IMG/VR virus record: IMGVR_UViG_3300003322_000628
Location: 259-64,258 of that record
DNA length: 64,000 bases
Direction: 5' to 3' (one strand)
DNA from: a virus
Lineage: Duplodnaviria; Caudoviricetes
The translations under genes were made by a program, and so were the position numbers. Shown piece by piece: positions 3,251 to 31,269 of this stretch. The notes under the pieces were generated by a model that saw only the letters and a program-made list of their open reading frames with translations, did not search any database and had not been told where the DNA came from. Positions within the stretch are counted from its first letter, which is position 1; the number at the start of each line of letters is the position of its first letter.

Positions 3251-3327
3251 GCGCCCGTAGCTCAGCTGGATAGAGCACGAGCCTTCTAAGCTTGTGGTCG
3301 GGGGTTCGAGTCCCTCCGGGCGTGCCA
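3251..3327 (+). tRNA. tRNA-Arg(UCU)
   Basis: cloverleaf; loop CTTCTAA; GTTCGAGTCC; encoded CCA. Confidence 0.95.
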
Positions 3328-3331
3328 ATTT

Positions 3332-3345
3332 TTGCTAACTAGCAA
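3332..3345. repeat. palindrome TTGCTA-AC-TAGCAA between tRNAs
   Basis: perfect copy in the tRNA spacer. Confidence 0.9.
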
Positions 3346-3352
3346 CGAACAA

Positions 3353-3428
3353 GGGCGTGTAGCTCAAAGGTTAGAGCAGGCGACTCATAATCGCTTGGTT
3401 GCAGGTTCGACCCCTGCCGCGCCCACCA
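3353..3428 (+). tRNA. tRNA-Ile2(CAU), lysidine-type (less likely elongator Met)
   Basis: anticodon arm GGCGA-CTCATAA-TCGCT as in bacterial ileX; G1-C72 paired so not initiator; CCA end. Confidence 0.9.
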
Positions 3429-6173: not shown

Positions 6174-6580
6174 TGTTCTACTGGAAGGAAGGCAAACGAT
6201 GGAAAAGCTTTGACTTCAGTTGTCTCGGCAGCATTCCTTCTTGCTGCGGAATTGAAGATGTTGGTGAATTTTATGCTCAAACGTGGAGCACGGAAAAGAA
6301 AGCCGTGGGCGACGACTGGATCGACCGAGAAAAAATTACTAAGAGAGCCCTATTCAAAGAGCTTGTAAAGGAATGCTTGCGTAGGGGCTCTATCATCATG
6401 GCAGATAGGAAAGGCGGGGATGCGGATAGAGTTTTATTTCCTCTCGCGCCTAAGAGAGCTTTCTTTCTTACGGATGCCGGAGTAAAGTGGAAATGCAAAG
6501 CTCATTTGTCCGACTACTACCACAATAGCAACAGTGGCGCTCGCATCCGGCATTGCATTGTGACGATGGAGAAAGCATGA
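6170..6580 (+). CDS. hypothetical protein, CCG/NxxS family paralogue 3
   Basis: PSCCGI and HNSNSGARI. Confidence 0.65.
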   Translation: MMFYWKEGKRWKSFDFSCLGSIPSCCGIEDVGEFYAQTWSTEKKAVGDDWIDREKITKRALFKELVKECLRRGSIIMADRKGGDADRVLFPLAPKRAFFLTDAGVKWKCKAHLSDYYHNSNSGARIRHCIVTMEKA

Positions 6581-7380
6581 GAGTTACAATCGTAACGAAC
6601 GGCCCTAGCAATAGCGCTCGCAATCTGCAGGCGGCCTTGCGCTTGCGAGGAGGGGAAGCTTCACGTGCACGGCCAACGTCGCGCCTGTCTTGCCGCGGCA
6701 CTCGATATGTAATAAACCTCGGAGTATCGGCCGCGCTAGGTTTTCAGCAGAGGCGTTTGCTAGTTAGCAACTCACAAGAGGGAGTACGCAACTGCCAAGA
6801 TAAGCGCCTTACGTTCGATGCTCTTCGTAGAGCCAGCGTATCTTCGCTGGAGTGGGGGGAAACGCAAGAAGGGGCTGTTGCGACGTGGCTAGAGCGCGAC
6901 GGTAAAGTTGTTGTGCGTCACACAGCGACAGGCCACAGCGGAGCAGGAATTCAAATCGTGCGTAAAGGAGAGCAGATTCCAGTTGCGCCTTTATATACGC
7001 GCTACTTCAAGAAGCAGGCGGAATACCGCGTGCATGTAGCGTTTGGTAATGTTATTCTTATCCAGCAAAAGAGGAAGCGAAATGGTGTTGAGCAAGAAAA
7101 TGAACAATCTTTGGTACGCACTCATGCAAATGGATGGGTGTTCTCTACACAGGCTCTCTCTTGTAACGAGCGTGGCTATCGTGACAATCTCTGTGCTCTT
7201 GGTATTGCCGCTGCTAATGCGATAAGGGCTGCACATTGCGCTGTAGATATTCTCGTAAGCCACGAGAACGGAAACAACATGGTGGTGTGCGAAATCAATT
7301 CCGCACCAGCGCTGGAAGCCAATAGCACGCTAGCTGCATACACAGATGCATTCATTAACGAAATGAGGAAATACGCGTGA
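6577..7380 (+). CDS. ATP-grasp ligase (phiEco32/LUZ24-type)
   Basis: DKRLTF, GHSGAGI loop, EYRVHV, AVDIL...VCEINSAPAL. Confidence 0.9.
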   Translation: MRVTIVTNGPSNSARNLQAALRLRGGEASRARPTSRLSCRGTRYVINLGVSAALGFQQRRLLVSNSQEGVRNCQDKRLTFDALRRASVSSLEWGETQEGAVATWLERDGKVVVRHTATGHSGAGIQIVRKGEQIPVAPLYTRYFKKQAEYRVHVAFGNVILIQQKRKRNGVEQENEQSLVRTHANGWVFSTQALSCNERGYRDNLCALGIAAANAIRAAHCAVDILVSHENGNNMVVCEINSAPALEANSTLAAYTDAFINEMRKYA

Positions 7381-7661
7381 ACAAAGACAATGCCCATCTC
7401 TATCTGCCTCTCGTGAAGGCTCTCGCTGAAGGTAAGGTTATTCAATACCAGACAAGCATTGGGACATGGCTAGATGTTACAGATGTATCTTTCGGGGTGG
7501 GTCATTATCATTATAGAGTCAAACCAGAGCCTCGCGTTCGATGGGCTGTATACGATGAGAACGGGGAATTCCGCGTAGGTTCGCACGATAAGAAGTTGAT
7601 CGAAGGTATGCAACGGCCTAAGGACACTATGGCGAAGTTTGTAGAAGAACTGGAGGGCTGA
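7377..7661 (+). CDS. phage hypothetical protein (GKxIQ/YRVKPEPR family)
   Basis: similar to 4402..4713. Confidence 0.65.
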   Translation: MNKDNAHLYLPLVKALAEGKVIQYQTSIGTWLDVTDVSFGVGHYHYRVKPEPRVRWAVYDENGEFRVGSHDKKLIEGMQRPKDTMAKFVEELEG

Positions 7662-8104
7662 TGGAGCCCCTGATTGTTGTATTCCAGTACACAGCCAATG
7701 GCGTTAAGGTTGCGGAATGGGCGTGGCTTAAGAAAAAGAAAGATGCTATTCCTGTAGCTAGAAGTAAGAGGCCAGAAGGCTCTGCACTGCAGGCTGTGTG
7801 GACATGCGCGTGGCGCAGTGCTCCTTCGCATTACGAGCTGGCGTACGGCTATGTTACTGAGGAAAATCAGCGAGGACCCTTCAAGGACATTGCGGCTAGC
7901 ATCCGAGACAAACATCTGCGCAAGCCCAAGGACAACAAATGGACTAGAGCTGCTAAGAAAATCCTAGCCGATGCAATAGCTCCCGCTTCAACGCAGCTGG
8001 TTATTCCTCGGGAGCCGCCTAAGGAAGCTCCCAAGCCAAAACCCAAAGCCAAGCTTTGGAATCCCTATTACATTTACGAGGCCCAGAAACGTGCAGCTCA
8101 TTAA
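7661..8104 (+). CDS. hypothetical protein
   Basis: coupled ORF, GGAGG RBS. Confidence 0.6.
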   Translation: MEPLIVVFQYTANGVKVAEWAWLKKKKDAIPVARSKRPEGSALQAVWTCAWRSAPSHYELAYGYVTEENQRGPFKDIAASIRDKHLRKPKDNKWTRAAKKILADAIAPASTQLVIPREPPKEAPKPKPKAKLWNPYYIYEAQKRAAH

Positions 8105-8954
8105 GGTTGGTGCTGATCCGGAAGTTGGCATCTACAATACCGCCAAAGGCATTGTCGTCCCGGGATGCGGTAAGATTCCCGGCACCAAAGCCAAGCCACA
8201 CCCCGTTCCAAACTCAAAGATCGGTCTCAAGATTCAGGAGGACGGAGTTAGTTTGGAGTACAACTTCGATCCTGTTCCAGTGAAGGACTTCTATCGGCGC
8301 GCCTTGGACGCTGCAGCTGGCGTGCGGAAAATGGTTAGTGCGCTATTCGGCCCAGACTATGACTGGTGGATTGGTGATGGCCACACGTTCGACATGAAGC
8401 AGCTGCTTCCACATCCGCAAGCTATGTGCTTCGGGTGCGACCCAGACTATCTCGCGCATCGCCGAGGGGAAATGAGGATGCCTCTGGACGCTAACGATTT
8501 GGGAGGCAATCGCTTCTTCGCGGGCCACATCCACATCGGATACGACAGGAAGTCGTGCCTCGTTCCGGACTGGGCGATTGTGCAGGGCATGGAAGCTCTG
8601 GCGTACACGCATCTGGCCTGCCTTGGATATGACGACCAGCCTAACAGGCGCAAGTATTACGGCATTCCGGGCCTGTTCCGGCCCAAGAGCTATGGCTTGG
8701 AATACCGGACACCCTCCAACTTCTGGGTGCATCAGCCACAGCATGTGTCTACGCTGATTTCCACGGCAGAGCACATCATCAACAAGCCTGCAAAGTTTCA
8801 GGAAATCTACCGACGCATCAACTTCGATGATGTGGTGGGGTATATCAACGATCCGCGCAAGCGAGGTACGGAAGTGTTTGTTGACAGCATGGGCGATTTG
8901 CGAGACGAGCTTTTTGCGGCTCCTGAGGAGAACATCGATGGTGAGGAAAAGTAA
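8091..8954 (+). CDS. phiEco32-like COOH-NH2 ligase type 2
   Basis: VGADPE, EDGVSLEYN, FGCDPDY, GHIHIGY, RRKYYG.PG.FRPKSYGLEYRTPSNFW. Confidence 0.9.
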   Translation: MQLIKVGADPEVGIYNTAKGIVVPGCGKIPGTKAKPHPVPNSKIGLKIQEDGVSLEYNFDPVPVKDFYRRALDAAAGVRKMVSALFGPDYDWWIGDGHTFDMKQLLPHPQAMCFGCDPDYLAHRRGEMRMPLDANDLGGNRFFAGHIHIGYDRKSCLVPDWAIVQGMEALAYTHLACLGYDDQPNRRKYYGIPGLFRPKSYGLEYRTPSNFWVHQPQHVSTLISTAEHIINKPAKFQEIYRRINFDDVVGYINDPRKRGTEVFVDSMGDLRDELFAAPEENIDGEEK

Positions 8955-9571
8955 TGCACCACTACAGTAGGGATGATTTTATTTCGTACTATGGAGGCAG
9001 CTTCCTGCTCAGTCCATCCACCAATAAGGTGGTAAGAGTTTTGCAGGGCGATCCAGCCAGAGAGTCCCACGTCATTCTGACGGATAAGAGCAGCGTCCAT
9101 CTGCGAGACTTGGACTGGAAGCATGTCAAGACTCCGCAGCTCGGCTTTCGTACGCTGGAGAATGGACGCCTGCTCTACTACGTACAGAGGCGTGCGGTGC
9201 GCGAGCGCCAGAAGGGCGTAACCCCTGTGGCCATTGTCATTGACATTCCGGGCATCATGACTTCTATTGCTCAGGAGCTTGGCTATTCTCAGGACGTTGC
9301 TCGTCTAGCCCAGCTCAATGACAAGCTGGCAGAGGCTATTTTCCATCCCGAGTTTGTGTCGATGGAAGATGCGCTGGAATTGCTAGCTAGCAAACGACAT
9401 GCTGTAGCATTCGCGCTGTCTCCTGATTGGGCAATCACGCTCGGCCTGCATTCGGACAAGCGCTATCTGCTGCATTACAAGAATCGTCGAGCAGGTCATT
9501 CCGTCGATGGGAAGAAGTGGGCATTCAATGACAGCGATGTAGAATACATCTTCAATAGGAGCAAGCTATGA
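8954..9571 (+). CDS. hypothetical protein in the amidoligase cluster
   Basis: 205 aa, translationally coupled on both sides. Confidence 0.75.
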   Translation: MHHYSRDDFISYYGGSFLLSPSTNKVVRVLQGDPARESHVILTDKSSVHLRDLDWKHVKTPQLGFRTLENGRLLYYVQRRAVRERQKGVTPVAIVIDIPGIMTSIAQELGYSQDVARLAQLNDKLAEAIFHPEFVSMEDALELLASKRHAVAFALSPDWAITLGLHSDKRYLLHYKNRRAGHSVDGKKWAFNDSDVEYIFNRSKL

Positions 9572-9924
9572 TGAACCGAGTAGTGGTTTACGGAAGCCTA
9601 AAGCGCGGCTTTGGTAACCACCGATTGCTAGAGACAGCTGAGTTTGTTGGGCCGTGCGTGTTCCGAGGCACAATGTACAGTCTCGGCGGATTCCCTGCTG
9701 TGTCTCTACACGGGGACACGCAGATTGTTGGAGAGCTGTATGATGTAGATGACGCTACGCTCTCTCGTCTTGATGGCCTCGAAGGATTCCGTGGTCATGG
9801 AGAACGCAATTGGTATGAGCGAGAGAAGATTGAAACAAACAAGGGGCCTGCGTGGGTGTACACGCAGGACGCCGACCAGCAGCTTTCGTCCTATCCGATT
9901 GTCAAGAGTGGGGTGTGGGAGTGA
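9568..9924 (+). CDS. gamma-glutamylcyclotransferase (AIG2-like)
   Basis: VYGSLKRGFGNH, GELYDV, LDGLEG, YERE. Confidence 0.9.
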   Translation: MMNRVVVYGSLKRGFGNHRLLETAEFVGPCVFRGTMYSLGGFPAVSLHGDTQIVGELYDVDDATLSRLDGLEGFRGHGERNWYEREKIETNKGPAWVYTQDADQQLSSYPIVKSGVWE

Positions 9925-10295
9925 AGATTGAAATTGGAAAGACGTACGCCGTCCGCTCAGTAATTGGCGGCCACGTTGTTAATAATTTCCAAGTGCGGGC
10001 TCTTGGGCAGGACGGATGGTACTACGGCCTGTGGATGGAGACAAACGATAGTGGTGCCGCAGCCGGTAGGTTTTCTGCGGAAGGACTAACAGACAAATGC
10101 GGCTACAGACTGGCGCCCAACATCAAGAAGGTGAAGAAGTATACTGCAGTGCTATCGCCAAAAACGAAGGGCTTCAAGATACAGATGGCAGCGATGATGT
10201 TCGATACTGAACAGCAAGTTATAGAGCATTGGGCAGACTCTGCTTTTTTCAAGATCATCAAAATTGTGGAAGTAGAGTGGGAAGAGGAGGAATAA
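9921..10295 (+). CDS. hypothetical protein
   Basis: GTG start coupled; KIEIGKTY start. Confidence 0.6.
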   Translation: MKIEIGKTYAVRSVIGGHVVNNFQVRALGQDGWYYGLWMETNDSGAAAGRFSAEGLTDKCGYRLAPNIKKVKKYTAVLSPKTKGFKIQMAAMMFDTEQQVIEHWADSAFFKIIKIVEVEWEEEE

Positions 10296-11408
10296 ATGGG
10301 ACAGAACGTAGGTCAGCGATACAAGCGTACAGTCCATCGCCAGCCAGAGGTTGACGACAGCCTACCCGTGCCCTACGCCAAGGTGGGCATCGAGATCGAA
10401 GTGGAGGGCTATCGCACCAAGGAAGATTTGGGTGGATGGCTAAACCACTGGTCAATTAAGGAAGACCACAGCCTTCGCAATAATGGCATGGAGTTTGTCA
10501 CAGATCAGGGCATGGTTGGGAAGGATATCAAGCTATGCATTGAGAACATCTGCAAGCTGTTCAGGCACAACAAATACAGCGAGGGCTATCCGCGCGCCGG
10601 CATTCACTTCCACATCGACGTAACGGACTTGAACGAGCACAGCAACACGCAGCTGCTCAATCTGGTGCTTGCGTATATGCTGTTTGAGAAGGCCGTCTTT
10701 CGCTTTGCTGGCGAGTGGCGAGAGGCTTGCGGATTTTGCGATCCTCTTCTGCTTAGCCAGCGAGACTTCCCGAACATCAGCGCCTTGCTGTACGACTGGA
10801 ATAACCTGTACCCACTGAGTGAGGGCAGGTTTAGCAAGTATCAGGCCATTAACTTTCTACCGCTCGCTCGTTTTGGCACGCTTGAATTTCGCCAGCTCCC
10901 CACCACGTTTGATGCACAGCGTATCATCGACTGGCTGTGCATTTGCCTGAGCTTCAAGCAGTATGCCGTCAACTATGACGTTGATCCTGTTGATTACATG
11001 GACAAATATGGTGTTGATGGCCTTGTCAATGCTGTGTTTGGCAAGTGGCGCAGCGCTGTGGACAAATATATCGTAGACGCGGAGATTAAAGCTGCTGCTC
11101 TGGAAGTTAGAAGCCTGCGTATTGGCCGATCTTTCTCTGGCAAGAAAGCAGTTAAGCCGGTGTTGGATAGCTGGGACAAGCCAGACAATCCTTTGCTACT
11201 TAGCAAGATAGAACAGGCACCAAAAAGGCCGGCCGCTAAAAAAATAGACGCGGCTACACTAGAAGCCGTAGCTTTAGACCGGCAGCACGCTGCCGACGCT
11301 GCGCTGTTCGGCGCGGGCAGAGAAGCAGAGTGGCTGCGCTTGAACGAGCAGTTGGCGCAACAGCTACGCGGCGTGCCCGACCTCATCCCGCCGCAACGTC
11401 GTCGTTAA
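10296..11408 (+). CDS. putative amidoligase (glutamine-synthetase-like fold)
   Basis: VGIEIEVE, DHSLRNNGMEFV, AGIHFHID, KYQAIN, FGTLEFR. Confidence 0.9.
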   Translation: MGQNVGQRYKRTVHRQPEVDDSLPVPYAKVGIEIEVEGYRTKEDLGGWLNHWSIKEDHSLRNNGMEFVTDQGMVGKDIKLCIENICKLFRHNKYSEGYPRAGIHFHIDVTDLNEHSNTQLLNLVLAYMLFEKAVFRFAGEWREACGFCDPLLLSQRDFPNISALLYDWNNLYPLSEGRFSKYQAINFLPLARFGTLEFRQLPTTFDAQRIIDWLCICLSFKQYAVNYDVDPVDYMDKYGVDGLVNAVFGKWRSAVDKYIVDAEIKAAALEVRSLRIGRSFSGKKAVKPVLDSWDKPDNPLLLSKIEQAPKRPAAKKIDAATLEAVALDRQHAADAALFGAGREAEWLRLNEQLAQQLRGVPDLIPPQRRR

Positions 11409-11430
11409 TTCAATTTAAGGAGAACGTGCC

Positions 11431-12831
11431 ATTTGTGGTATTCTTGGTGTCATTAACGGCGAACAGTCGTGGAAGAAGGGCCTCGGTGAGCTGAATGCTT
11501 ACATGAAGCAGGGCTGCATCTCAGGTATTTTCCGAGGAGAGGACAGCACCGGGCTGGTTCAGATCAGCAGGAAGTTTGATTCTCGTGTTCTGAAGATGCC
11601 CTTTGACGGATACATCTTCGCTCAGCAGAAGAAGGTAAAGCAGGCATTCGATAATGTGGATAGCAATTTCGCTACTATTGTCCATCACCGCGCTGCTACT
11701 CATGGCACAGTCAGCATGGACAATTGCCATCCCTTCGAGCACAAGGCAGGCGAACGTTACGTAGTGGGAGTGCATAACGGCACCATCCACACGTTCAGTA
11801 GGAACGAAGATGGCAAGAGCTTTGATGTAGATAGCGACTGGCTCTACCATCGCATCGCTCGCGACGGCGCTATGAAGGCGCTCGGTAGCCTGAGTGGGGG
11901 CTCTTACGCCCTTGTCTGGGCGGAGAAGCCAAGCGATAAGATTTTCATGGCCGTTAATGAGCAGCGGCCGCTGGCGTTTGCTTTCGTCAGAGGGCTCAAT
12001 GCTATGGTATTGGCTAGCGAGCACGCCCATCTGTGGTATTTGGCGTGGCGGAATGGTATCGAAGTGGAACAGATTATGTATCCAGCCGTAGACACCATCT
12101 ACGAATTCGATCCCAAGGGGGATTTGCGCGACTATAAAACCCACGACATTGAGAAGATAAAGTATAAGCCACCAGCCTACTCTGCTCCTTCTTATTCATC
12201 TGCGCCACCTGTCAATCAGGTGGTGAGGCAGCACGGTGTTAATGAAATTAGAGATGTGTATGGTGCAGCTTCCAACTTGAATGAGATGGGGTTCAATCCC
12301 GGCGAGGAGTTGGAGTTTGTCCTTCACCGCAAGCTCGCGATGGCAAATAGAGCGACAGAAACATACGCGCTGTTTGGAGAAGTGATTAATCCGAGGGCTG
12401 TTGTAGAAAAGGCTGTAATCAATGGCGCTACGTCTAATGTCATTGAGAACATGACCAAATCCAAGCTTATCATGGTGAAGGCTTTGGGTACGCGAGAAAT
12501 CACAGATCGAACCACAGGAAAGGTGGTGGACAAATTTGTAATTTGCAGCACTCCGTCTTGCGATATCGAGGATGATAGTGGAGAGCAACTTGCTAACGTG
12601 GAGGATGAGAATAGCGACCCTTTCGTCATTGGGCCGCGTGGCAATCCCGTAACTAAGGAAGAATGGGAGCGCCTCACTTCCAGAGGGTGTTCCCATTGCG
12701 GCGAGCGATTTCACGTCGAAGAGGCTGGGACTATTGTCTGGACTTCTTCTGGGGATAGCCCTGTGTGTGCTCAGTGTATTCAGTGGTGGAACAACCAGTA
12801 CCCCAACAGCATGAGGGGGATGTTGAATTGA
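11431..12831 (+). CDS. class II (Ntn) glutamine amidotransferase with C-terminal Zn finger; predicted ATT start
   Basis: TAAGGAG-N8-ATT TGT GGT ATT CTT GGT gives (M)CGILG; RGEDSTG, HHRAATHG, HPF, HNGT, DSD; CSHC...CAQC. Confidence 0.88.
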   Translation: MCGILGVINGEQSWKKGLGELNAYMKQGCISGIFRGEDSTGLVQISRKFDSRVLKMPFDGYIFAQQKKVKQAFDNVDSNFATIVHHRAATHGTVSMDNCHPFEHKAGERYVVGVHNGTIHTFSRNEDGKSFDVDSDWLYHRIARDGAMKALGSLSGGSYALVWAEKPSDKIFMAVNEQRPLAFAFVRGLNAMVLASEHAHLWYLAWRNGIEVEQIMYPAVDTIYEFDPKGDLRDYKTHDIEKIKYKPPAYSAPSYSSAPPVNQVVRQHGVNEIRDVYGAASNLNEMGFNPGEELEFVLHRKLAMANRATETYALFGEVINPRAVVEKAVINGATSNVIENMTKSKLIMVKALGTREITDRTTGKVVDKFVICSTPSCDIEDDSGEQLANVEDENSDPFVIGPRGNPVTKEEWERLTSRGCSHCGERFHVEEAGTIVWTSSGDSPVCAQCIQWWNNQYPNSMRGMLN

Positions 12832-18188: not shown

Positions 18189-18462
18189 TTAAAAGCTCTT
18201 GCTCTTGCTTTGTTTTTATCTTTGCTTTATCTTGCTTTTGCTTGCGTAATACCTTAGCAAGCCTAGACTAACTACAAGAGAACAACAATAAAGAAAGCAT
18301 GGATTTACTTTGTATTCAGCTTAAGTATTTTGCTAACTAGCATTCTCATACTGAAAGGATAGATGCAATGATTCTTGGTTTGGTGCTTGGGTTTTTCCTA
18401 GGCTGTTTCTTATTCATCGTAATTGATGACATGGGTAAGCTATAGTAGTTGGAGATAATCCA

Positions 18463-18657
18463 ATGTTAGCCCATCTCAATCTTGATAGAGGTAGATTTAT
18501 GATGGCTCTATCCGACGCTATGCAGCAGCGACAGGCTACTGTCGATAGGCTTACAAGCGAACTTAGCACAGCGCAGATACGCGTAGAAGAACTTAGGGAC
18601 AAGCTAGATTTGGCTAAGCGCCTTCAAGAAGAAACTAAGAGGATTGCTAGCCTATGA
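18463..18657 (+). CDS. small coiled-coil protein
   Basis: GGAG RBS, heptad pattern. Confidence 0.55.
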   Translation: MLAHLNLDRGRFMMALSDAMQQRQATVDRLTSELSTAQIRVEELRDKLDLAKRLQEETKRIASL

Positions 18658-18913
18658 GTTTTCTACTGCTGGTTTTCGTCTTCATGCTATGTGTCGTCAT
18701 GATAGCTGACGTGTTTGATACGCCGTGACTTTGGATGTATCTTATGCTAAAAGCCAAGCACTAGTAATTAGAAGAATAGCGGACAGGCTTACGCGTATTG
18801 GAGAGAGTATCAAAAGTCATGGCATAGTAGACTTCGGGCTACATCTAAAGACAGAAGTAGGGTATTTGATGGACGCTTTAGACATGAAAGAAGATGAGAG
18901 ATAAGGAGCTGCT

Positions 18914-20779
18914 ATCGACTACGAAAACATAAGCCCAGAAGTCTACAAGACAGGTTCCTTCGTAGTTGTAGATTTCGAGACCACAATCTTAGAAAAGGGA
19001 AGTCCACTAAATCTACAGAACGATTTGGTGCTGGCCTGTTGGTACACGTCGTGGGATGGGGCCTACCACAGCAAGTTTGGCACTGAGTATGAGCAGCGTG
19101 AATTACTCCGCGACATAGCTCAGGCCGACTTTGTAATAGCTCAGAACGCAAAGTTCGAGCTTGGGTGGCTAGATAGATGTGGACTAGACTTGCATGACGT
19201 GCTCGTCTGGGACACCATGCTTGCAGAGTGGGTAGTGGCCGGCAATCGGCAATTCCCTAAAGACCTCGGCAGCATGCTCAAGAAGAGAAGTCTAGCCGGC
19301 AAGGAAGACGTTGTTGGCGGAATGATTAAGCTGGGCATCTGTCCCTCTAACATTCCCAAAGGACTGCTAAACGCCTACTGTCGTGAAGACGTTAGGGGAA
19401 CTCTTGAGCTGTTTCGCTGTCAAATACAAGAACTGGAAGAAAGACAGCAGCTCCATCTTGTCCTTGCTCGGTGCCTCCTCACTCCTGTCCTAGCAGACAT
19501 TGAGAAGCAGGGTATTGTCCTAGACAAAGATGCCGTGTATGAAGAATACCACAGAGTAATTCAGGAGAAAGATGACACAGAACGATTGCTGTCAGAGTTT
19601 GGACAAATCAACTGGAACAGCAGACAGCAAGTTGCAGAGTTGCTGTACGACCAGCTCGGATTTGATGAGCTGCGAGACAGAAGAGGTAATGTCATTCGCA
19701 CAGCTGCAGGCGCTCGTAGCACAAGCCGAGCAACCCTATCTCAGCTCAGAGGAAAAACAGCAACTCAGCGCGCCTTTCTGGAAGCGTTTGCTAAGCTGGC
19801 TCTTCTAAATACAAAAATAAGCAAGACACTTGCGTTCTTCAAGGAGATATGTGACAACCACGAGTGCAAGTTCCACGGAGCATTTAACCAAGGTAGCACT
19901 GGAACTCATCGCCTCAGCAGCTCCGGGAGGAAAATTGAAACTGACCAAGGAGATTCACTCTCCGCCCAGCTCCAAAATATTCCTAGAGAGTACAAGAAAT
20001 TCATTCGAGCTAGAGACGAGGGATGGGAAGTTTGTGAGGCTGACGGTAGCCAAATTGAATTCCGAGTGGCTGCCGACCTTGGGCATGATGAAGTAGCATA
20101 TGACGAGATTTGCAGAGATGCTGACATTCATACAGCTACAGCTACCGTCTTTTTGGAGGACGGCACTCATCCAGATTTCAAAGGACTAGACTTAAAGCAA
20201 GCAAGACAGCCCGCTAAGCCTCAGACGTTTAAACCGCTGTACGGCGGGAGAGGAAATCATCCTGCAGAAAAAGTGTACTGTGAATTCTTCCAAGACAAAT
20301 ACAAAGGAATCTATAGCACACAAACACAGTGGACGTACGACGTCTTAAGAGATAAGGAACTACGTACACCGTACGGCCTAATCTTCTACTGGCCTGACAC
20401 GCAGCTAACTCGCAGTGGATATATCACCAATAGCACGAGCATATTCAACTACCCTATTCAGGGATTTGCTACGGCTGAGATTATCCCCATCGTACTTGTT
20501 AGTTTGTGGCGTAAGCTTAGAGGATGGGATGTTCGTATTATCCTCACAGTGCATGACAGCATTATCTTGGAAGTTGGTCCATCAGTAGACAGGAGACAGC
20601 TATACGACTTGATTGCTAGAGCATTCACAGAAGATGTGTACAAGTTTCTTGAACGTGTGTATGGCTACCGCTTCACTGTGCCGTTAGGTGCGGAGATTAA
20701 GATGGGCCCCGTGTGGGGCAGTGGTAAAGGACAGAAGGTTAAGATGTTTCCAAATGAAGGAGAACTAGTTTGGCAGTAG
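18914..20779 (+). CDS. family A DNA polymerase with 3'-5' exonuclease; predicted ATC start
   Basis: ExoI VVDFETT lies upstream of TTG 19025; NAKFE, DTMLA, YCREDV; THRLSS, QNIPR, DGSQIEFR, YPIQG, TVHDS. Confidence 0.92.
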   Translation: MDYENISPEVYKTGSFVVVDFETTILEKGSPLNLQNDLVLACWYTSWDGAYHSKFGTEYEQRELLRDIAQADFVIAQNAKFELGWLDRCGLDLHDVLVWDTMLAEWVVAGNRQFPKDLGSMLKKRSLAGKEDVVGGMIKLGICPSNIPKGLLNAYCREDVRGTLELFRCQIQELEERQQLHLVLARCLLTPVLADIEKQGIVLDKDAVYEEYHRVIQEKDDTERLLSEFGQINWNSRQQVAELLYDQLGFDELRDRRGNVIRTAAGARSTSRATLSQLRGKTATQRAFLEAFAKLALLNTKISKTLAFFKEICDNHECKFHGAFNQGSTGTHRLSSSGRKIETDQGDSLSAQLQNIPREYKKFIRARDEGWEVCEADGSQIEFRVAADLGHDEVAYDEICRDADIHTATATVFLEDGTHPDFKGLDLKQARQPAKPQTFKPLYGGRGNHPAEKVYCEFFQDKYKGIYSTQTQWTYDVLRDKELRTPYGLIFYWPDTQLTRSGYITNSTSIFNYPIQGFATAEIIPIVLVSLWRKLRGWDVRIILTVHDSIILEVGPSVDRRQLYDLIARAFTEDVYKFLERVYGYRFTVPLGAEIKMGPVWGSGKGQKVKMFPNEGELVWQ

Positions 20780-21936: not shown

Positions 21937-22010
21937 GAGCCCTTGATGTAATGGTAGCATAACATCCTTCCAAGTTGTTTGTGTGGGTTCAAATCCCACA
22001 AGGCTCTCCA
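21937..22010 (+). tRNA. tRNA-Gly(UCC)
   Basis: loop CTTCCAA; GTTCAAATC; U discriminator + CCA; one acceptor-stem mismatch. Confidence 0.85.
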
Positions 22011-22011
22011 A

Positions 22012-22087
22012 GGGTCGTTGGTGTAATTGGCAGCACGGCAGACTCCAAATCTGTCAGGTGTGGGTTCGAGTCCTACGCGGCCCGCCA
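22012..22087 (+). tRNA. tRNA-Trp(CCA)
   Basis: loop CTCCAAA; GTTCGAGTCC; GCCA end. Confidence 0.92.
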
Positions 22088-22419: not shown

Positions 22420-24333
22420 ATGGACGAACCACAAATTGTCACGCCTTGGAGTAGTGTTGGATACCTTACATACAAAAGAACCTATGCTAGACGCCTCGAT
22501 GAGCAGAACGCTAGCTCTGCAACTGAAGAATGGGCAGACACTATTGATCGAATTATCAGAGGAACAGCTAAACAGCTTGACTGCGGATTTACCTTGGCAG
22601 AGCAGGAGCGGCTTCGACGACATCTGCTTGAACTTCGAGGTACTGTGGCAGGCCGGTTCCTGTGGCAACTCGGCACGGCTACGGTTGAAAAGCTGGGGCT
22701 TGCCAGCTTACAAAACTGCGCCTGCGTCTGCGTAGACGAACCAATTCGTCCATTTACGTGGACGATGGACATGTTGATGTTGGGGTGTGGTGTTGGCTTT
22801 AATATTCAGAGAGAGTATGTCTACAAACTACCCAAAGTGGATGCTGGATATATTGGTCCTGCGCGACATGATGCAGCAGATGCAGATTTCATTGTCTCAG
22901 ATACTAGAGAAGGTTGGGTCAAACTCCTCGAATATACTCTCCGAGCTGCATTCGATGGCAATGCGAAGAAAAGATTTACATACTCTACGCAGCTTGTACG
23001 TGGAGCGGGAGCCCCAATTAAGGGTTTTGGAGGAACAGCTTCCGGCCCTGAAATCTTGTGTGACGGCATTGGAAACATTAGTGCTATCTTGGCGACAAGG
23101 GCTGGAAAGCAACTCCGACCAGTAGACTGTCTCGACATTATGAACATCATCGGCGCCATTGTCGTAGCTGGTAATGTACGACGCAGTGCTGAGATAGCAA
23201 TAGGTGACATGGATGATTTTCAATATCTCCGTTCTAAACGATGGGACTTGGGAAATATCCCAAACTGGAGGTCCAACTCCAACAACTCGGTCGTGTGTAA
23301 TGATTTTGACCTACTGCCCGACGAAATCTGGAAAGGGTACATGGGCAATGGGGAACCTTTTGGACTTATCAATCTTAAGCTCGCGAGAGCAGTTGGACGA
23401 ACTGGTGAACGCCAGTATGCCGATAAGGACGTTATTGGGTTCAATCCGTGCGCGGAACAGAGTCTCGCTAATTACGAAACTTGTTGCCTTGCTGAAATCT
23501 TCCTACCCAACATCCGCAGTAAGGATGAGCTATTCGACGTGGGATCGTTGCTGTACAGGGTTTGCAAGCACAGCCTAAATCTGCCATGTCACAATAAGGA
23601 GACAGAGGAAATTGTCCATCGCAATCAGCGAATGGGTATTGGAATTACAGGATATCTTCAAGCAACGGAAGAACAGCGCGACTGGCTTTCCTCAACTTAC
23701 GATAGGCTTAGAGAATACGACGCTGCTTATTCGAGAGAACACGGCTGGCCTGCAAGTATTAAACTCACTACTATCAAGCCATCAGGAACTCTCTCACTTC
23801 TGCCCGGTGTTACACCCGGCTGCCATCCAGCATACGCAAAGTGGATGGTTAGACGGATTAGACTGTCTGCTGATAGTCCCCTCGTCGCAACTATTCGCGA
23901 GCACGGATACAAAGTGGAACCTGTGCGTGCTTTCGATGGATCAGTCGACCGTTCGACTGTGGTTGCCGAATTTCCATTCTGTTACCCGGAAGGCACTAAG
24001 CTCGCGCGTGATATGTCTGCAATCGACCAGCTTGAAGTTGTTAGGCGCCTCCAAGCAGAATGGAGTGATAATGCAGTAAGCTGCACTATCTATTACAGAA
24101 AGGAAGAGCTGCCAGCGATCAAAGAGTATCTAAGCAAATACTACAATAAACACTTCAAGAGCTTAAGCTTTTTGCTTCACAATGATCATGGCTTTGATCA
24201 AGCTCCACTAGAAGAAATAACTGAAGAGGAGTACAACAAGCTTGTCAGAAAGACACGACTTATCACAGCTGTTGATCGCGCAGAATTCGATGGAGACGAC
24301 GAGTGCGCTTCCGGCGTTTGCCCGATCAAGTGA
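22420..24333 (+). CDS. nrdJ: class II (adenosylcobalamin-dependent) ribonucleotide reductase
   Basis: YKRTYAR, LQNCA, GNVRRSA, NPCAE, TTIKPSGTLS, C-terminal CASGVCPIK; no small subunit seen. Confidence 0.92.
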   Translation: MDEPQIVTPWSSVGYLTYKRTYARRLDEQNASSATEEWADTIDRIIRGTAKQLDCGFTLAEQERLRRHLLELRGTVAGRFLWQLGTATVEKLGLASLQNCACVCVDEPIRPFTWTMDMLMLGCGVGFNIQREYVYKLPKVDAGYIGPARHDAADADFIVSDTREGWVKLLEYTLRAAFDGNAKKRFTYSTQLVRGAGAPIKGFGGTASGPEILCDGIGNISAILATRAGKQLRPVDCLDIMNIIGAIVVAGNVRRSAEIAIGDMDDFQYLRSKRWDLGNIPNWRSNSNNSVVCNDFDLLPDEIWKGYMGNGEPFGLINLKLARAVGRTGERQYADKDVIGFNPCAEQSLANYETCCLAEIFLPNIRSKDELFDVGSLLYRVCKHSLNLPCHNKETEEIVHRNQRMGIGITGYLQATEEQRDWLSSTYDRLREYDAAYSREHGWPASIKLTTIKPSGTLSLLPGVTPGCHPAYAKWMVRRIRLSADSPLVATIREHGYKVEPVRAFDGSVDRSTVVAEFPFCYPEGTKLARDMSAIDQLEVVRRLQAEWSDNAVSCTIYYRKEELPAIKEYLSKYYNKHFKSLSFLLHNDHGFDQAPLEEITEEEYNKLVRKTRLITAVDRAEFDGDDECASGVCPIK

Positions 24334-25529: not shown

Positions 25530-26432
25530 GTGATTAAGAGCTACCCGAAGATTCTTCCTGCTGTTAGCAAGTACGCAGACTTGATTGTTGGCCGTGACAT
25601 TCAGATTGAAGAAAAGGTAGATGGCAGCTTCTTCGGCTTTGGTGTGGACGAAGAAGGCAAGCTACATATTCGCTCTAAGGGTCAGGCAATCGAACCAACA
25701 GCCCCTAACGATTTGTTCCGCCCGGCTGTTGAGCACGTCATTACAATTCAGCACCGTCTACCCAAGGGCTACGTGTTCTATGGTGAAACGCTAAAGACCG
25801 CACGCCACAACACACTGGAGTATGCCCGGGTACCCCGCAATCACATTGCTCTGTTTGGTGTGTTCACGGATTGGGAACGCTCAGTAGCTCTGCCATACGA
25901 AGAGATGGCAGAGTGGGCTGGTAAGCTAGACATTGATGTTGTGCCTCTCATCTTCCGAGGCCAGCTGCAGAGCTTAGACCAGCTCGGCCAGCTAGTGAAG
26001 GAAGGCCGAGAAAGCTTCCTAGGCGGCCCTGCTATGGAAGGCGTGGTGGTGAAGAACTATAACATGCCTATGGAATTCTCTGGCATGATTTATCCGTTCT
26101 CTGCTTTCAAGCTTGTAAGCGAGGCCTTCAAGGAAAAGCATTCCAGCAATCCCGACTGGAAGCCACAGCGTGACGTGCTTGAGGAATGCCTAGAGCAGTA
26201 TCGCTCAGAGGCTCGCTGGATGAAGGCTATCCAGCATCTTCGTGAGAAGGGGGAGCTTGTTGGTGAGCCAAAGGATATTGGCCCGCTGATGAAGGAGCTA
26301 TGGGAGGACGTGCTTACGGAAGAGAAGGAAAACTTCAAGGAAGAGCTGTTCAACATCTTTAAGAAGCGCCTAGCCTCAAAGGTTCAGGCAGGCTTCCCAC
26401 AATTCTATAAGGAGTATTTGCTACGTGTATAA
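25530..26432 (+). CDS. RNA ligase (Rnl2-like nucleotidyltransferase)
   Basis: EEKVDGS, FYGET, ALFGV, EGVVVK, FKLV; AAGGA + GTG. Confidence 0.8.
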   Translation: MIKSYPKILPAVSKYADLIVGRDIQIEEKVDGSFFGFGVDEEGKLHIRSKGQAIEPTAPNDLFRPAVEHVITIQHRLPKGYVFYGETLKTARHNTLEYARVPRNHIALFGVFTDWERSVALPYEEMAEWAGKLDIDVVPLIFRGQLQSLDQLGQLVKEGRESFLGGPAMEGVVVKNYNMPMEFSGMIYPFSAFKLVSEAFKEKHSSNPDWKPQRDVLEECLEQYRSEARWMKAIQHLREKGELVGEPKDIGPLMKELWEDVLTEEKENFKEELFNIFKKRLASKVQAGFPQFYKEYLLRV

Positions 26433-30096: not shown

Positions 30097-30359
30097 GCCA
30101 TTTTGATCGGCAAGTACAAGGCAATCACTACAAGCAATTTACTATCCAGCCAATGGCGTATGCGCTGGCCAACCGTATGGGATATTGTGAAGCCACAGCA
30201 CTCAAGTACATAACTCGTTGGCAACTTAAGGGAGGCCTGTCTGACTTGGACAAAGCCATTCATTTCTTGCAGTTGCTAAAAGAGTATGCTCAAGACAATC
30301 CTGATCTATTTGGTCTTAATGACGATGGTACTGTGAAGGAGAAAAATGGAAACAGTTGA
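30093..30359 (+). CDS. DUF3310 / T7 gp1.7-like protein
   Basis: QVQGNHY, IQP, KYITRW..KGG..DLDKA. Confidence 0.8.
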   Translation: MSHFDRQVQGNHYKQFTIQPMAYALANRMGYCEATALKYITRWQLKGGLSDLDKAIHFLQLLKEYAQDNPDLFGLNDDGTVKEKNGNS

Positions 30360-30519
30360 AATCACACGGAGTGATTTGCGTTTCGTTCTTCGTGCAATCG
30401 ACACGGCTCTGCCAGAACTAGAGGCGGCCGTTCACGACGGACTTATTGATGAGAGCGTACTCATCGAGCTTTCGGAGGCTCAGGATATTTGCCTCCAATC
30501 ACTAAACGTAAGGAAATAA
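30346..30519 (+). CDS. hypothetical protein (57 aa)
   Basis: AAGGAG RBS, ATG 30346. Confidence 0.55.
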   Translation: METVEITRSDLRFVLRAIDTALPELEAAVHDGLIDESVLIELSEAQDICLQSLNVRK

Positions 30520-30522
30520 GCT

Positions 30523-31269
30523 ATCCGTATACTGTCTCTAGACATTGAAAATAGCTTTCTAGTATCCGGCACTTGGGGCTTGTGGGGACAAAACATTTCC
30601 ATAGATCAGCTTTTCGATCATGGTAAAGTATTGTGCTTTGCCGCTAAGTGGATGGACAAAAAGGCTGTCGTATTCAAACGATTCGACGAGCCCAACTTCC
30701 TCGAAACAATACATAGCCTTTTAGATGAGGCGGATGTTGTACTATCGTACAACGGTAAGCGGCATGATATTCCCATGCTGAATAGGGAATTTCTAAAGGC
30801 CGGCCTTACACCTCCAAGTCCATACAAACAGATTGATTTGTTTGAGACTGTCAAGAAGGCGTTCAAGTTTCCTAGTAACAAGCTACAGCATGTTTCAAAG
30901 GAACTTGGTATTGGTGAGAAAGTAGACCATGAAGGATTTGGCCTTTGGGTCAAATGCCTACAGGGCGATGCAGCATCTTGGGCTGTTATGAAGAAGTATA
31001 ACATCCAAGACGTAAAGCTACTTGAGAAGCTTTACAATTCGCTGCAGCCGTGGGTAGCCAACCACCCCAATCACAATCTGTACGGTAGAGTAGGGGTGTG
31101 CCCGCATTGTGGCAGTAAGCATGTACAAAGCCGAGGAACATACAAGACACAGACAGCCATCTATAAGCGACTGCATTGTCAGGATTGCGGAGCATGGAGC
31201 CGTAGCCGGTACACGGAAGTTGAAAAAGAGCTACGCGAAACCGTATACACAGGAGTTAGCCTATCGTAA
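30523..31269 (+). CDS. DnaQ/RNase H-like 3'-5' exonuclease with Zn ribbon; predicted ATC start
   Basis: (M)RILSLDIEN ExoI upstream of TTG 30580; YNGKRHD; YNIQDV; CPHC...CQDC. Confidence 0.85.
   Translation: MRILSLDIENSFLVSGTWGLWGQNISIDQLFDHGKVLCFAAKWMDKKAVVFKRFDEPNFLETIHSLLDEADVVLSYNGKRHDIPMLNREFLKAGLTPPSPYKQIDLFETVKKAFKFPSNKLQHVSKELGIGEKVDHEGFGLWVKCLQGDAASWAVMKKYNIQDVKLLEKLYNSLQPWVANHPNHNLYGRVGVCPHCGSKHVQSRGTYKTQTAIYKRLHCQDCGAWSRSRYTEVEKELRETVYTGVSLS

Follow-up and report, generated by a model that had tools for sequence, protein, structure and literature searches.

The DNA analyzed here, referred to as the window, is a stretch of 64,000 nucleotides (positions 259-64258) of a 64,258-bp IMG/VR record from an uncultured soil phage; the record is rated 100% complete and the window has a G+C content of 49.6%. 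Its plus strand carries a gene for a family-A DNA polymerase with an N-terminal 3'-5' exonuclease domain (18914..20779; 621 aa), for which an in-frame ATC (18914..18916, plus strand) is the proposed start codon. The local sequence reads GAGAGA TAA GGA GCT GCT ATC GAC TAC GAA, with TAA at 18902 and ATC at 18914. The Shine-Dalgarno (SD) sequence TAAGGAG (18902..18908, plus strand) precedes the ATC by 5 nt, the spacer being CTGCT, and its predicted duplex with the anti-SD has an energy of -8.5 kcal/mol. Part of this ribosome-binding site is formed by the TAA stop of a small open reading frame (ORF) located upstream (18725..18904, plus strand), which has a GTG start, encodes 59 aa of no assigned family and is in the same frame as the polymerase.

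Scanning of the polymerase frame revealed no ATG, GTG or TTG between TAA 18902 and the TTG at 19025..19027 (plus strand), which is the first canonical codon of the frame and has an SD energy of +0.2 kcal/mol, that is, no ribosome-binding site. The translation of the frame after the stop is *GAAIDYENISPEVYKTGSFVVVDFETTILEKGSPLNLQNDL, where the last L corresponds to TTG 19025. The motif FVVVDFETT (18959..18985, plus strand), which contains the D-x-E residues of Exo I, is encoded upstream of this TTG, and at SD distance ATC 18914 is the only near-cognate codon. These features had been pointed out in a preliminary description of the stretch; both the reading of the sequence and the ORF listing agree with the position of the stop, the first canonical codon and the motif, and the TAAGGAG 5 nt before the ATC was found as described. 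The ORF listing opens the polymerase at 19025 (19025..20779) and the publicly available gene model P0001 (583 aa) begins next to the same TTG.

The homology of the polymerase extends upstream of this point. PF00476 matched residues 224-602 (E 2.8e-33), and Taq and Klenow polymerases aligned with E values of about 1e-22, Klenow from residue 64 and across QNAKFE. In tblastn searches against isolated phages, the alignments opened at query residue 4 for several Vibrio phages, at residue 5 for VpV262 and at residue 9 for StenR_269, all of which precede TTG 19025 (residue 38). VDFET occupies residues 19-23, and D-x-E-T is kept in all 15 rows of alignment A1 that reach this region, the window included; we take Exo I and Exo II to be the appropriate labels for these polymerase motifs. 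A profile search with PF01612 (E up to 0.01) gave no match in the window polymerase, although this domain is on record for relatives. Judged from the sequence, ATC 18914 is very probably the only sensible start of the polymerase, and the non-canonical start is very probably real.

Two further genes with ATH codons at the start position

The preliminary description had also reported that the pattern recurs at 11431 and 30523 in a GC(T/C)-AT(C/T) context. The codons preceding the ATH triplet (ATC, ATA or ATT) are GCT at 18914, GCC at 11431 and GCT at 30523, and both additional codons align with the ATG of homologues, so that this observation is upheld. At the first of these sites TAAGGAG (11416..11422, plus strand; -9.2 kcal/mol) lies 8 nt before ATT 11431, which opens a gene for a class-II (N-terminal nucleophile) glutamine amidotransferase (11431..12831, plus strand; PF13522, PF13230). 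The ATT is followed by TGT GGT ATT (Cys-Gly-Ile), and it aligns with the annotated ATG in both homologues inspected, those of StenR_269 and Vibrio phage 1.262.O (MCGI/MCGL). In class-II amidotransferases the Cys that follows the initiator Met is the catalytic nucleophile, and the start is therefore not expected downstream of ATT 11431; between the in-frame TAA and this Cys there are only GGA GAA CGT GCC ATT.

The second gene encodes a DnaQ-like (RNase H fold) exonuclease (30523..31269, plus strand; PF13482). TAAGGA (30509..30514, plus strand; -6.1 kcal/mol) lies 8 nt before ATC 30523, and an in-frame ORF of 57 aa (30346..30519, plus strand) ends upstream at TAA 30517. The protein opens with IRILSLDIEN, and its D-I-E motif is located upstream of the first canonical codon, TTG 30580. 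ATC 30523 aligns with ATG in both homologues inspected, ACP17 (MKILFLDVE) and MW202481 (MKILMIDIE).

The anti-SD duplex energies were compared with those of all ATH triplets in the window (5596, both strands counted), using as thresholds the values of the three sites, whose positions had been fixed beforehand by homology. Energies of -8.5, -9.2 and -6.1 kcal/mol or lower were found for 1.4%, 1.1% and 6.5% of the triplets, respectively, and the pairing of SD and ATH at the three sites exceeds chance. A candidate fourth ATH start, ATT 4967, was rejected because its frame is not coding at that point, the true start of the gene being ATG 5054 with AAAGGAG before it.

The start codon in relatives and in independent contigs

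Close relatives of the polymerase were not found in viral contigs by a single-protein search and came from an alignment query; at the DNA level the only match among isolated phages was one of 98 nt to StenR_269. For each relative locus the codons were listed from the upstream in-frame stop to the Exo I motif. No canonical start was present in L089/L174 (about 72-73% identity; GGGGGCGCT ATC GAC, context GCT ATC GAC), L093 (GAGGAGCCAGCT ATA GAT, context GCT ATA GAT), L005 (TAGGAGAAGCCT ATA), L006/L177 (TAAGGTGACACT ATA ATT), the identical L007, L094 and L095 (TAGGAGAAATAACT ATT) and L180 (GAAGGCGGTGCT ATA ATT). L164 (AAGGAGGCTAAT ATT) has a single TTG directly before the catalytic Asp, and so no usable canonical start. 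Every ATH polymerase relative carries an SD 4-8 nt before the ATC, ATA or ATT. L106, with an SD value of -7.4 for its ATA compared to +0.4 for a TTG, is a probable further case, whereas L132, which shows no canonical codon but whose frame runs off the contig end, was left out of the count.

In a FastTree phylogeny of 99 distinct polymerase rows, all seven ATH rows fell in one clade of 13 rows (support 99), with none among the 86 rows outside it. A quick IQ-TREE analysis of 40 hand-chosen rows including the added L180 and L175, with near-identical loci collapsed beforehand, placed all eight ATH rows in one clade of 14 rows (Shimodaira-Hasegawa-like approximate likelihood ratio test 99); the remaining members are L106 and five rows with canonical starts (L090, ATG; L092, TTG; L099, L008 and L096, ATG). 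At least 3-4 changes of start-codon state are needed on the tree, and a single origin of the ATH trait followed by reversions would be possible. The comparison of homologous polymerase genes at this codon proposed in the preliminary description thus gave ATC, ATA or ATT with an SD in one clade. Since they are conserved in relatives, the ATH codons would be functional and not errors.

The closest genome is G003, the 65,201-bp record behind L089/L174, in which all three ATH starts are present. Its polymerase is 72% identical to that of the window over 625 aligned residues, starting from codon 0 of the open frame. The amidotransferase of G003, 37-41% identical to that of the window, begins with GTC ATT TGC behind an SD, and the exonuclease with TCT ATC AAC ATC TTA ATG CTC GAT, also behind an SD. 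Comparison of stop-to-stop ORFs of the window and G003 by blastp gave 106 pairs, 44 of which were flagged because similarity starts upstream of the first canonical codon. These were mostly shadow frames, and the strong cases on the coding strand were exactly the polymerase, the amidotransferase and the exonuclease; the flagged minus-strand frames from 34759, 35114, 46575 and 57423 were rejected, having ordinary ATG starts. In more distant genomes the exonuclease starts with ATG (G001, G002, G005) and the amidotransferase with ATG or TTG (G001, G002, G004-G007). Of the three ATH traits, only that of the polymerase appears to be old.

The base preceding the ATH codon is T at 11 of 13 sites and CT occupies -2/-1 at 10 of them, compared to 16/73 and 1/73, respectively, for the SD-led canonical starts of the window. 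Fisher values are 2.7e-5 for T at -1 and 8.6e-10 for CT, which are not true probabilities since the 13 rows are kin. The U at -1 would be able to form a pair with A37 in the initiator tRNA.

The polymerase start was also found in contigs of the Logan collection, which are contigs and not reads and have a low depth of about 3-8x. One of them, from X1 (possibly the source sample), is identical to the window over 18700-19093. The other, 2573 nt long, belongs to X2, a run of a different study. Over 18912-19500 it shows 21 differences from the window, none of them before 18955, and it keeps the ATC; upstream, the stretch of the 59-aa ORF (about 240 nt) gives way to about 242 nt of unrelated sequence. 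Ahead of the polymerase, the small genes thus appear to form a swap zone next to which the polymerase start is retained. The X2 strain, about 96% identical in the polymerase, shows a second upstream swap within 18407-18912, in which 34 nt stand in place of 243 nt. The polymerase family may contain inserted elements: in Xanthomonas phage DES1 the polymerase match is split in two by an HNH nuclease gene, and several database proteins of 913-958 aa (among the rows P0016, P0060, P0061 and P0097) are far longer than the query, which suggests inserted homing-endonuclease or intein-like elements.

Probable initiation at AUH codons and alternative explanations

From the layout, the homology up to the ATH codon and its conservation in relatives and contigs we infer that the AUC is used, that output would be low and that a regulatory purpose may be served. 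We consider it highly likely that the polymerase, the amidotransferase and the exonuclease use SD-led near-cognate AUH initiation by formylmethionyl-tRNA (fMet-tRNA) with low output. The strong SD TAAGGAG would position the 30S subunit at AUC 18914, 5 nt downstream, where the initiator fMet-tRNA would pair at two of three bases, possibly helped by the U at -1 through A37. With initiation at AUC by fMet-tRNA the product would therefore begin with Met and contain the complete 3'-5' exonuclease domain. Polymerase output per mRNA would be low because AUH codons initiate poorly. The same design would apply to the amidotransferase (AUU 11431), in which removal of the Met would expose the catalytic Cys, and to the DnaQ-like exonuclease (AUC 30523).

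This mechanism has precedents. fMet-tRNA reads AUU, AUC and AUA less efficiently, and initiation factor 3 (IF3) discriminates against them (PMC5499595). In reporters of Escherichia coli, AUA, AUC and AUU gave 0.02-3% of the AUG level (bioRxiv 10.1101/063800), while the conserved AUU and AUA starts of Staphylococcus aureus, which have extended SDs, reach roughly 10% and up to 30% of AUG (PMC13009471). Pairing of U(-1) with A37 of the initiator tRNA has been described (PMC10018350). From these efficiencies a dosage-limiting role is a reasonable inference. The preliminary description had proposed a dosage or timing layer on replication enzymes; low dosage is a fair expectation, but the layer would not be specific to replication, since one of the three genes encodes a glutamine amidotransferase inside an amidoligase cluster. 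The gating by IF3 status during infection that it considered possible found no support in any of the analyses.

The AUU starts of E. coli infC, which encodes IF3, and pcnB resemble those described here in that an SD-led AUH opens an intact conserved gene, with limited output and discrimination by IF3 against AUU, AUC and AUA (PMC5499595; 10.1101/063800). In contrast to infC and pcnB, the genes of the window encode a phage DNA polymerase, an amidotransferase and a DnaQ-like exonuclease, and show no evident IF3 feedback loop. The S. aureus starts of cvfC1 (AUU), ccpN, citZ and infC (AUA) are likewise conserved AUH codons with a strong extended SD and proper spacing that were missed by annotation; these were mapped by Ribo-Ret and reporters and belong to host regulators, whereas here phage enzymes are deduced from sequence (PMC13009471). 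The CT at -2/-1 is a further difference from the S. aureus starts. The sequence features expected of AUH initiation were found: an AUH at the start position of homologues, an SD 4-9 nt upstream, no usable canonical codon, and conservation of the codon in related genomes. The closest annotated phage homologues, the polymerases of StenR_269 and Vibrio phage VpV262 (47% and 39% identity), have the same family-A architecture with an N-terminal exonuclease domain and belong to a comparable replication module in which an amidoligase and an amidotransferase are also encoded, but start at ATG, unlike the ATC of the window.

A start at TTG 19025 or GTG 19028, as in the public call, would yield a polymerase whose proofreading domain does not work. 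No canonical codon of the frame comes earlier and the 583-aa protein P0001 is called there, but TTG 19025 has no SD, the exonuclease fold would lose its first strand together with the D-x-E motif of Exo I, and amino-acid conservation with L089 and with distant phages extends upstream of this codon. The same explanation would have to hold for two more enzymes, removing a catalytic Cys and a D-x-E motif, and we regard it as very unlikely. Fusion of the polymerase to the in-frame ORF 18725..18904 by stop readthrough or recoding, which the preliminary description had named as an outcome that would overturn its claim, draws on the frame of this ORF in the window and on the presence of an in-frame ORF before the exonuclease. 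Among relatives, however, the frame of the upstream ORF is 0 in some and +1 in L089, L006 and L164, and the ORF can also overlap the polymerase gene or be absent; the in-frame stop is TAA, TAG or TGA; the in-frame upstream stretch of L089 is Cys/Arg/Trp-rich non-coding text; and X2 swaps the upstream ORF yet keeps the polymerase start. Because the frame and presence of the ORF and the stop codons vary, readthrough fails as an explanation, and its probability is extremely small.

Translational coupling, in which ribosomes ending at the upstream stop would re-initiate at the nearby AUH and account for most of its use in place of fresh 30S binding, has more in its favor. The distance from the upstream stop is 9 nt for ATC 18914 and 3 nt for ATC 30523, the stop of L006 overlaps its start (TAATT), the upstream ORF of L089 ends 13 nt inside the polymerase gene, and those of L007 and L164 end 24 and 17 nt before the start. 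Re-initiation in E. coli uses fMet-tRNA and initiation factor 2 and is lowered by excess IF3 (PMC2268962). On the other hand, the nearest upstream ORF of L093 ends 94 nt away, L005 has no upstream ORF of at least 30 codons within 200 nt, and the amidotransferase start is 22 nt from the preceding stop. Every site has its own strong SD, as independent initiation needs, and tight packing is normal in phages, so that proximity alone is not diagnostic. Coupling is somewhat unlikely to replace fresh initiation, but re-initiation is plausible as a contributor.

Several points weigh against direct AUH initiation as outlined above. The depth in X1, the likely source run, is about 3-4x, which would favor a sequencing or assembly error at codons that are in truth ATG. 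Such an explanation requires an error in each of three start codons, every time precisely at the third base, and the same three ATH codons occur in G003 and other polymerase ATH codons in several other metagenomes. GCTATG and GCCATG are found 59 and 29 times in the window, on both strands, which speaks against G being miscalled in this particular context. Since the ATC is kept in a contig from a different study (X2), an error is unlikely; the preliminary description had called for a check of raw reads, and both the X1 and X2 contigs retain ATC. We give an error almost no chance of being correct. The remaining points concern the codons themselves. In L006 and L180 the start could be the ATA or the adjacent ATT, and the G003 exonuclease has an ATG four codons past its ATC, which makes it an ambiguous case. 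The sequences behind the CT enrichment are related, and common ancestry may account for part of it. Within the ATH subclade, about one of nine lineages has G as the third base of its start codon, a share that does not differ statistically from 25%; this gives no evidence of selection against ATG, and mere tolerance would also fit. No RNA run holding the polymerase stretch was found, and the N-terminus and ribosome placement are deduced from the DNA.

Direct AUH initiation could also be read as more than tolerance. A dedicated weak-start design (strong SD, CU at -2/-1, AUH) would have become fixed on the replicase of a soil and rhizosphere phage clade and extended to two further enzymes in the genus of the window, serving as a sensor that couples replisome dosage to the initiation state of the host (IF3:ribosome ratio, ppGpp, temperature), with U(-1):A37 quadruplet pairing compensating to keep the AUH usable. 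We consider this extension unlikely; if it were true, host physiology would set the rate of phage replication translationally.

Genome context and implications

The plus strand from about 1 to 31.4 kb forms the early/replication block of the window and the minus strand the structural block. A crude tally of start codons, obtained with a rough caller that miscalled some long genes, gave 37 ATG, 14 GTG and 12 TTG in the early block and 24 ATG, 2 GTG and 5 TTG in the structural block, which fits generally weaker starts in the early/replication block. TTG behind an SD is the most likely start of the primase (12828), the DnaB-like helicase (14496), two unassigned genes (20770 and 21014) and the 5'-3' exonuclease (27721), all on the plus strand, so that the replication module, with these and the three ATH genes, largely avoids ATG, the minus-strand structural genes having mostly ATG in the same tally. 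The primase TTG 12828 has an SD energy of -11.4, TTG 14496 is the first canonical codon of the helicase frame, and TTG 27721 is consistent as the exonuclease start. The TTG starts listed in the preliminary description therefore stand for the primase, helicase and 5'-3' exonuclease; the gene at TTG 21014, which it called SSB, matched no Pfam or PHROGs family, and that label is unconfirmed.

The genes from 6577 to 12831 on the plus strand form one run, comprising a protein similar to the PHROGs family 'ribosomal protein S6 glutaminyl transferase' (6577-7380; no Pfam match), a phiEco32-like COOH-NH2 ligase (8091-8954) and an Amidoligase_2 protein (10296-11408), and ending with the class-II amidotransferase (11431-12831). 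The amidoligase-amidotransferase pair is also present in StenR_269, and the run looks like a cassette for the modification of small molecules, peptides or DNA.

Four tRNA genes, for Arg(tct), Met with a CAT anticodon, Gly(tcc) and Trp(cca), are located on the plus strand at 3251-3428 and 21937-22087. A phage-encoded initiator tRNA for AUH was considered and rejected, as the CAT tRNA (3353-3428) lacks bacterial-type initiator features: it is not of the initiator type because its G1:C72 end is paired, and its anticodon stem has no run of three G:C pairs. It is presumably an elongator tRNA-Met or of the tRNA-Ile2 type (lysidine, reads AUA). An RNA ligase (25530-26432, plus strand; PF09414, PHROG 548) is encoded in the early block, not far from two tRNA genes and a ribonucleotide reductase (22420-24333), and possibly serves tRNA repair that counters host anticodon nucleases.

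Initiation at AUH codons is a known phenomenon (infC, pcnB, and ccpN and cvfC1 of S. aureus), to which the present case adds persistence at the level of a clade for a phage replicase, another genome with all three sites and the -2/-1 context. Literature searches listed no report of conserved ATH starts in family-A polymerases of phages, which does not prove that none has been published. Relatives of the polymerase are numerous in the large protein database, and the exonuclease motif is cut off in 10 of the 24 aligned in A1, as in the 583-aa call of the window; several of the shortened public models lie on contigs of 47-66 kb, and some of the 10 were possibly cut by contig ends. Truncated public gene models lose the proofreading motif, and studies of viral polymerases that rely on them, whether functional or phylogenetic, can be misled. 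On an enzyme essential to the phage, the weak AUH start would have persisted while the proteins diverged by roughly 50%, and it comes with an upstream context of its own; the clade may thus offer a natural test set for the trade-off between start-codon strength, SD strength and the -1 base, and for the use of IF3-dependent discrimination by phages.

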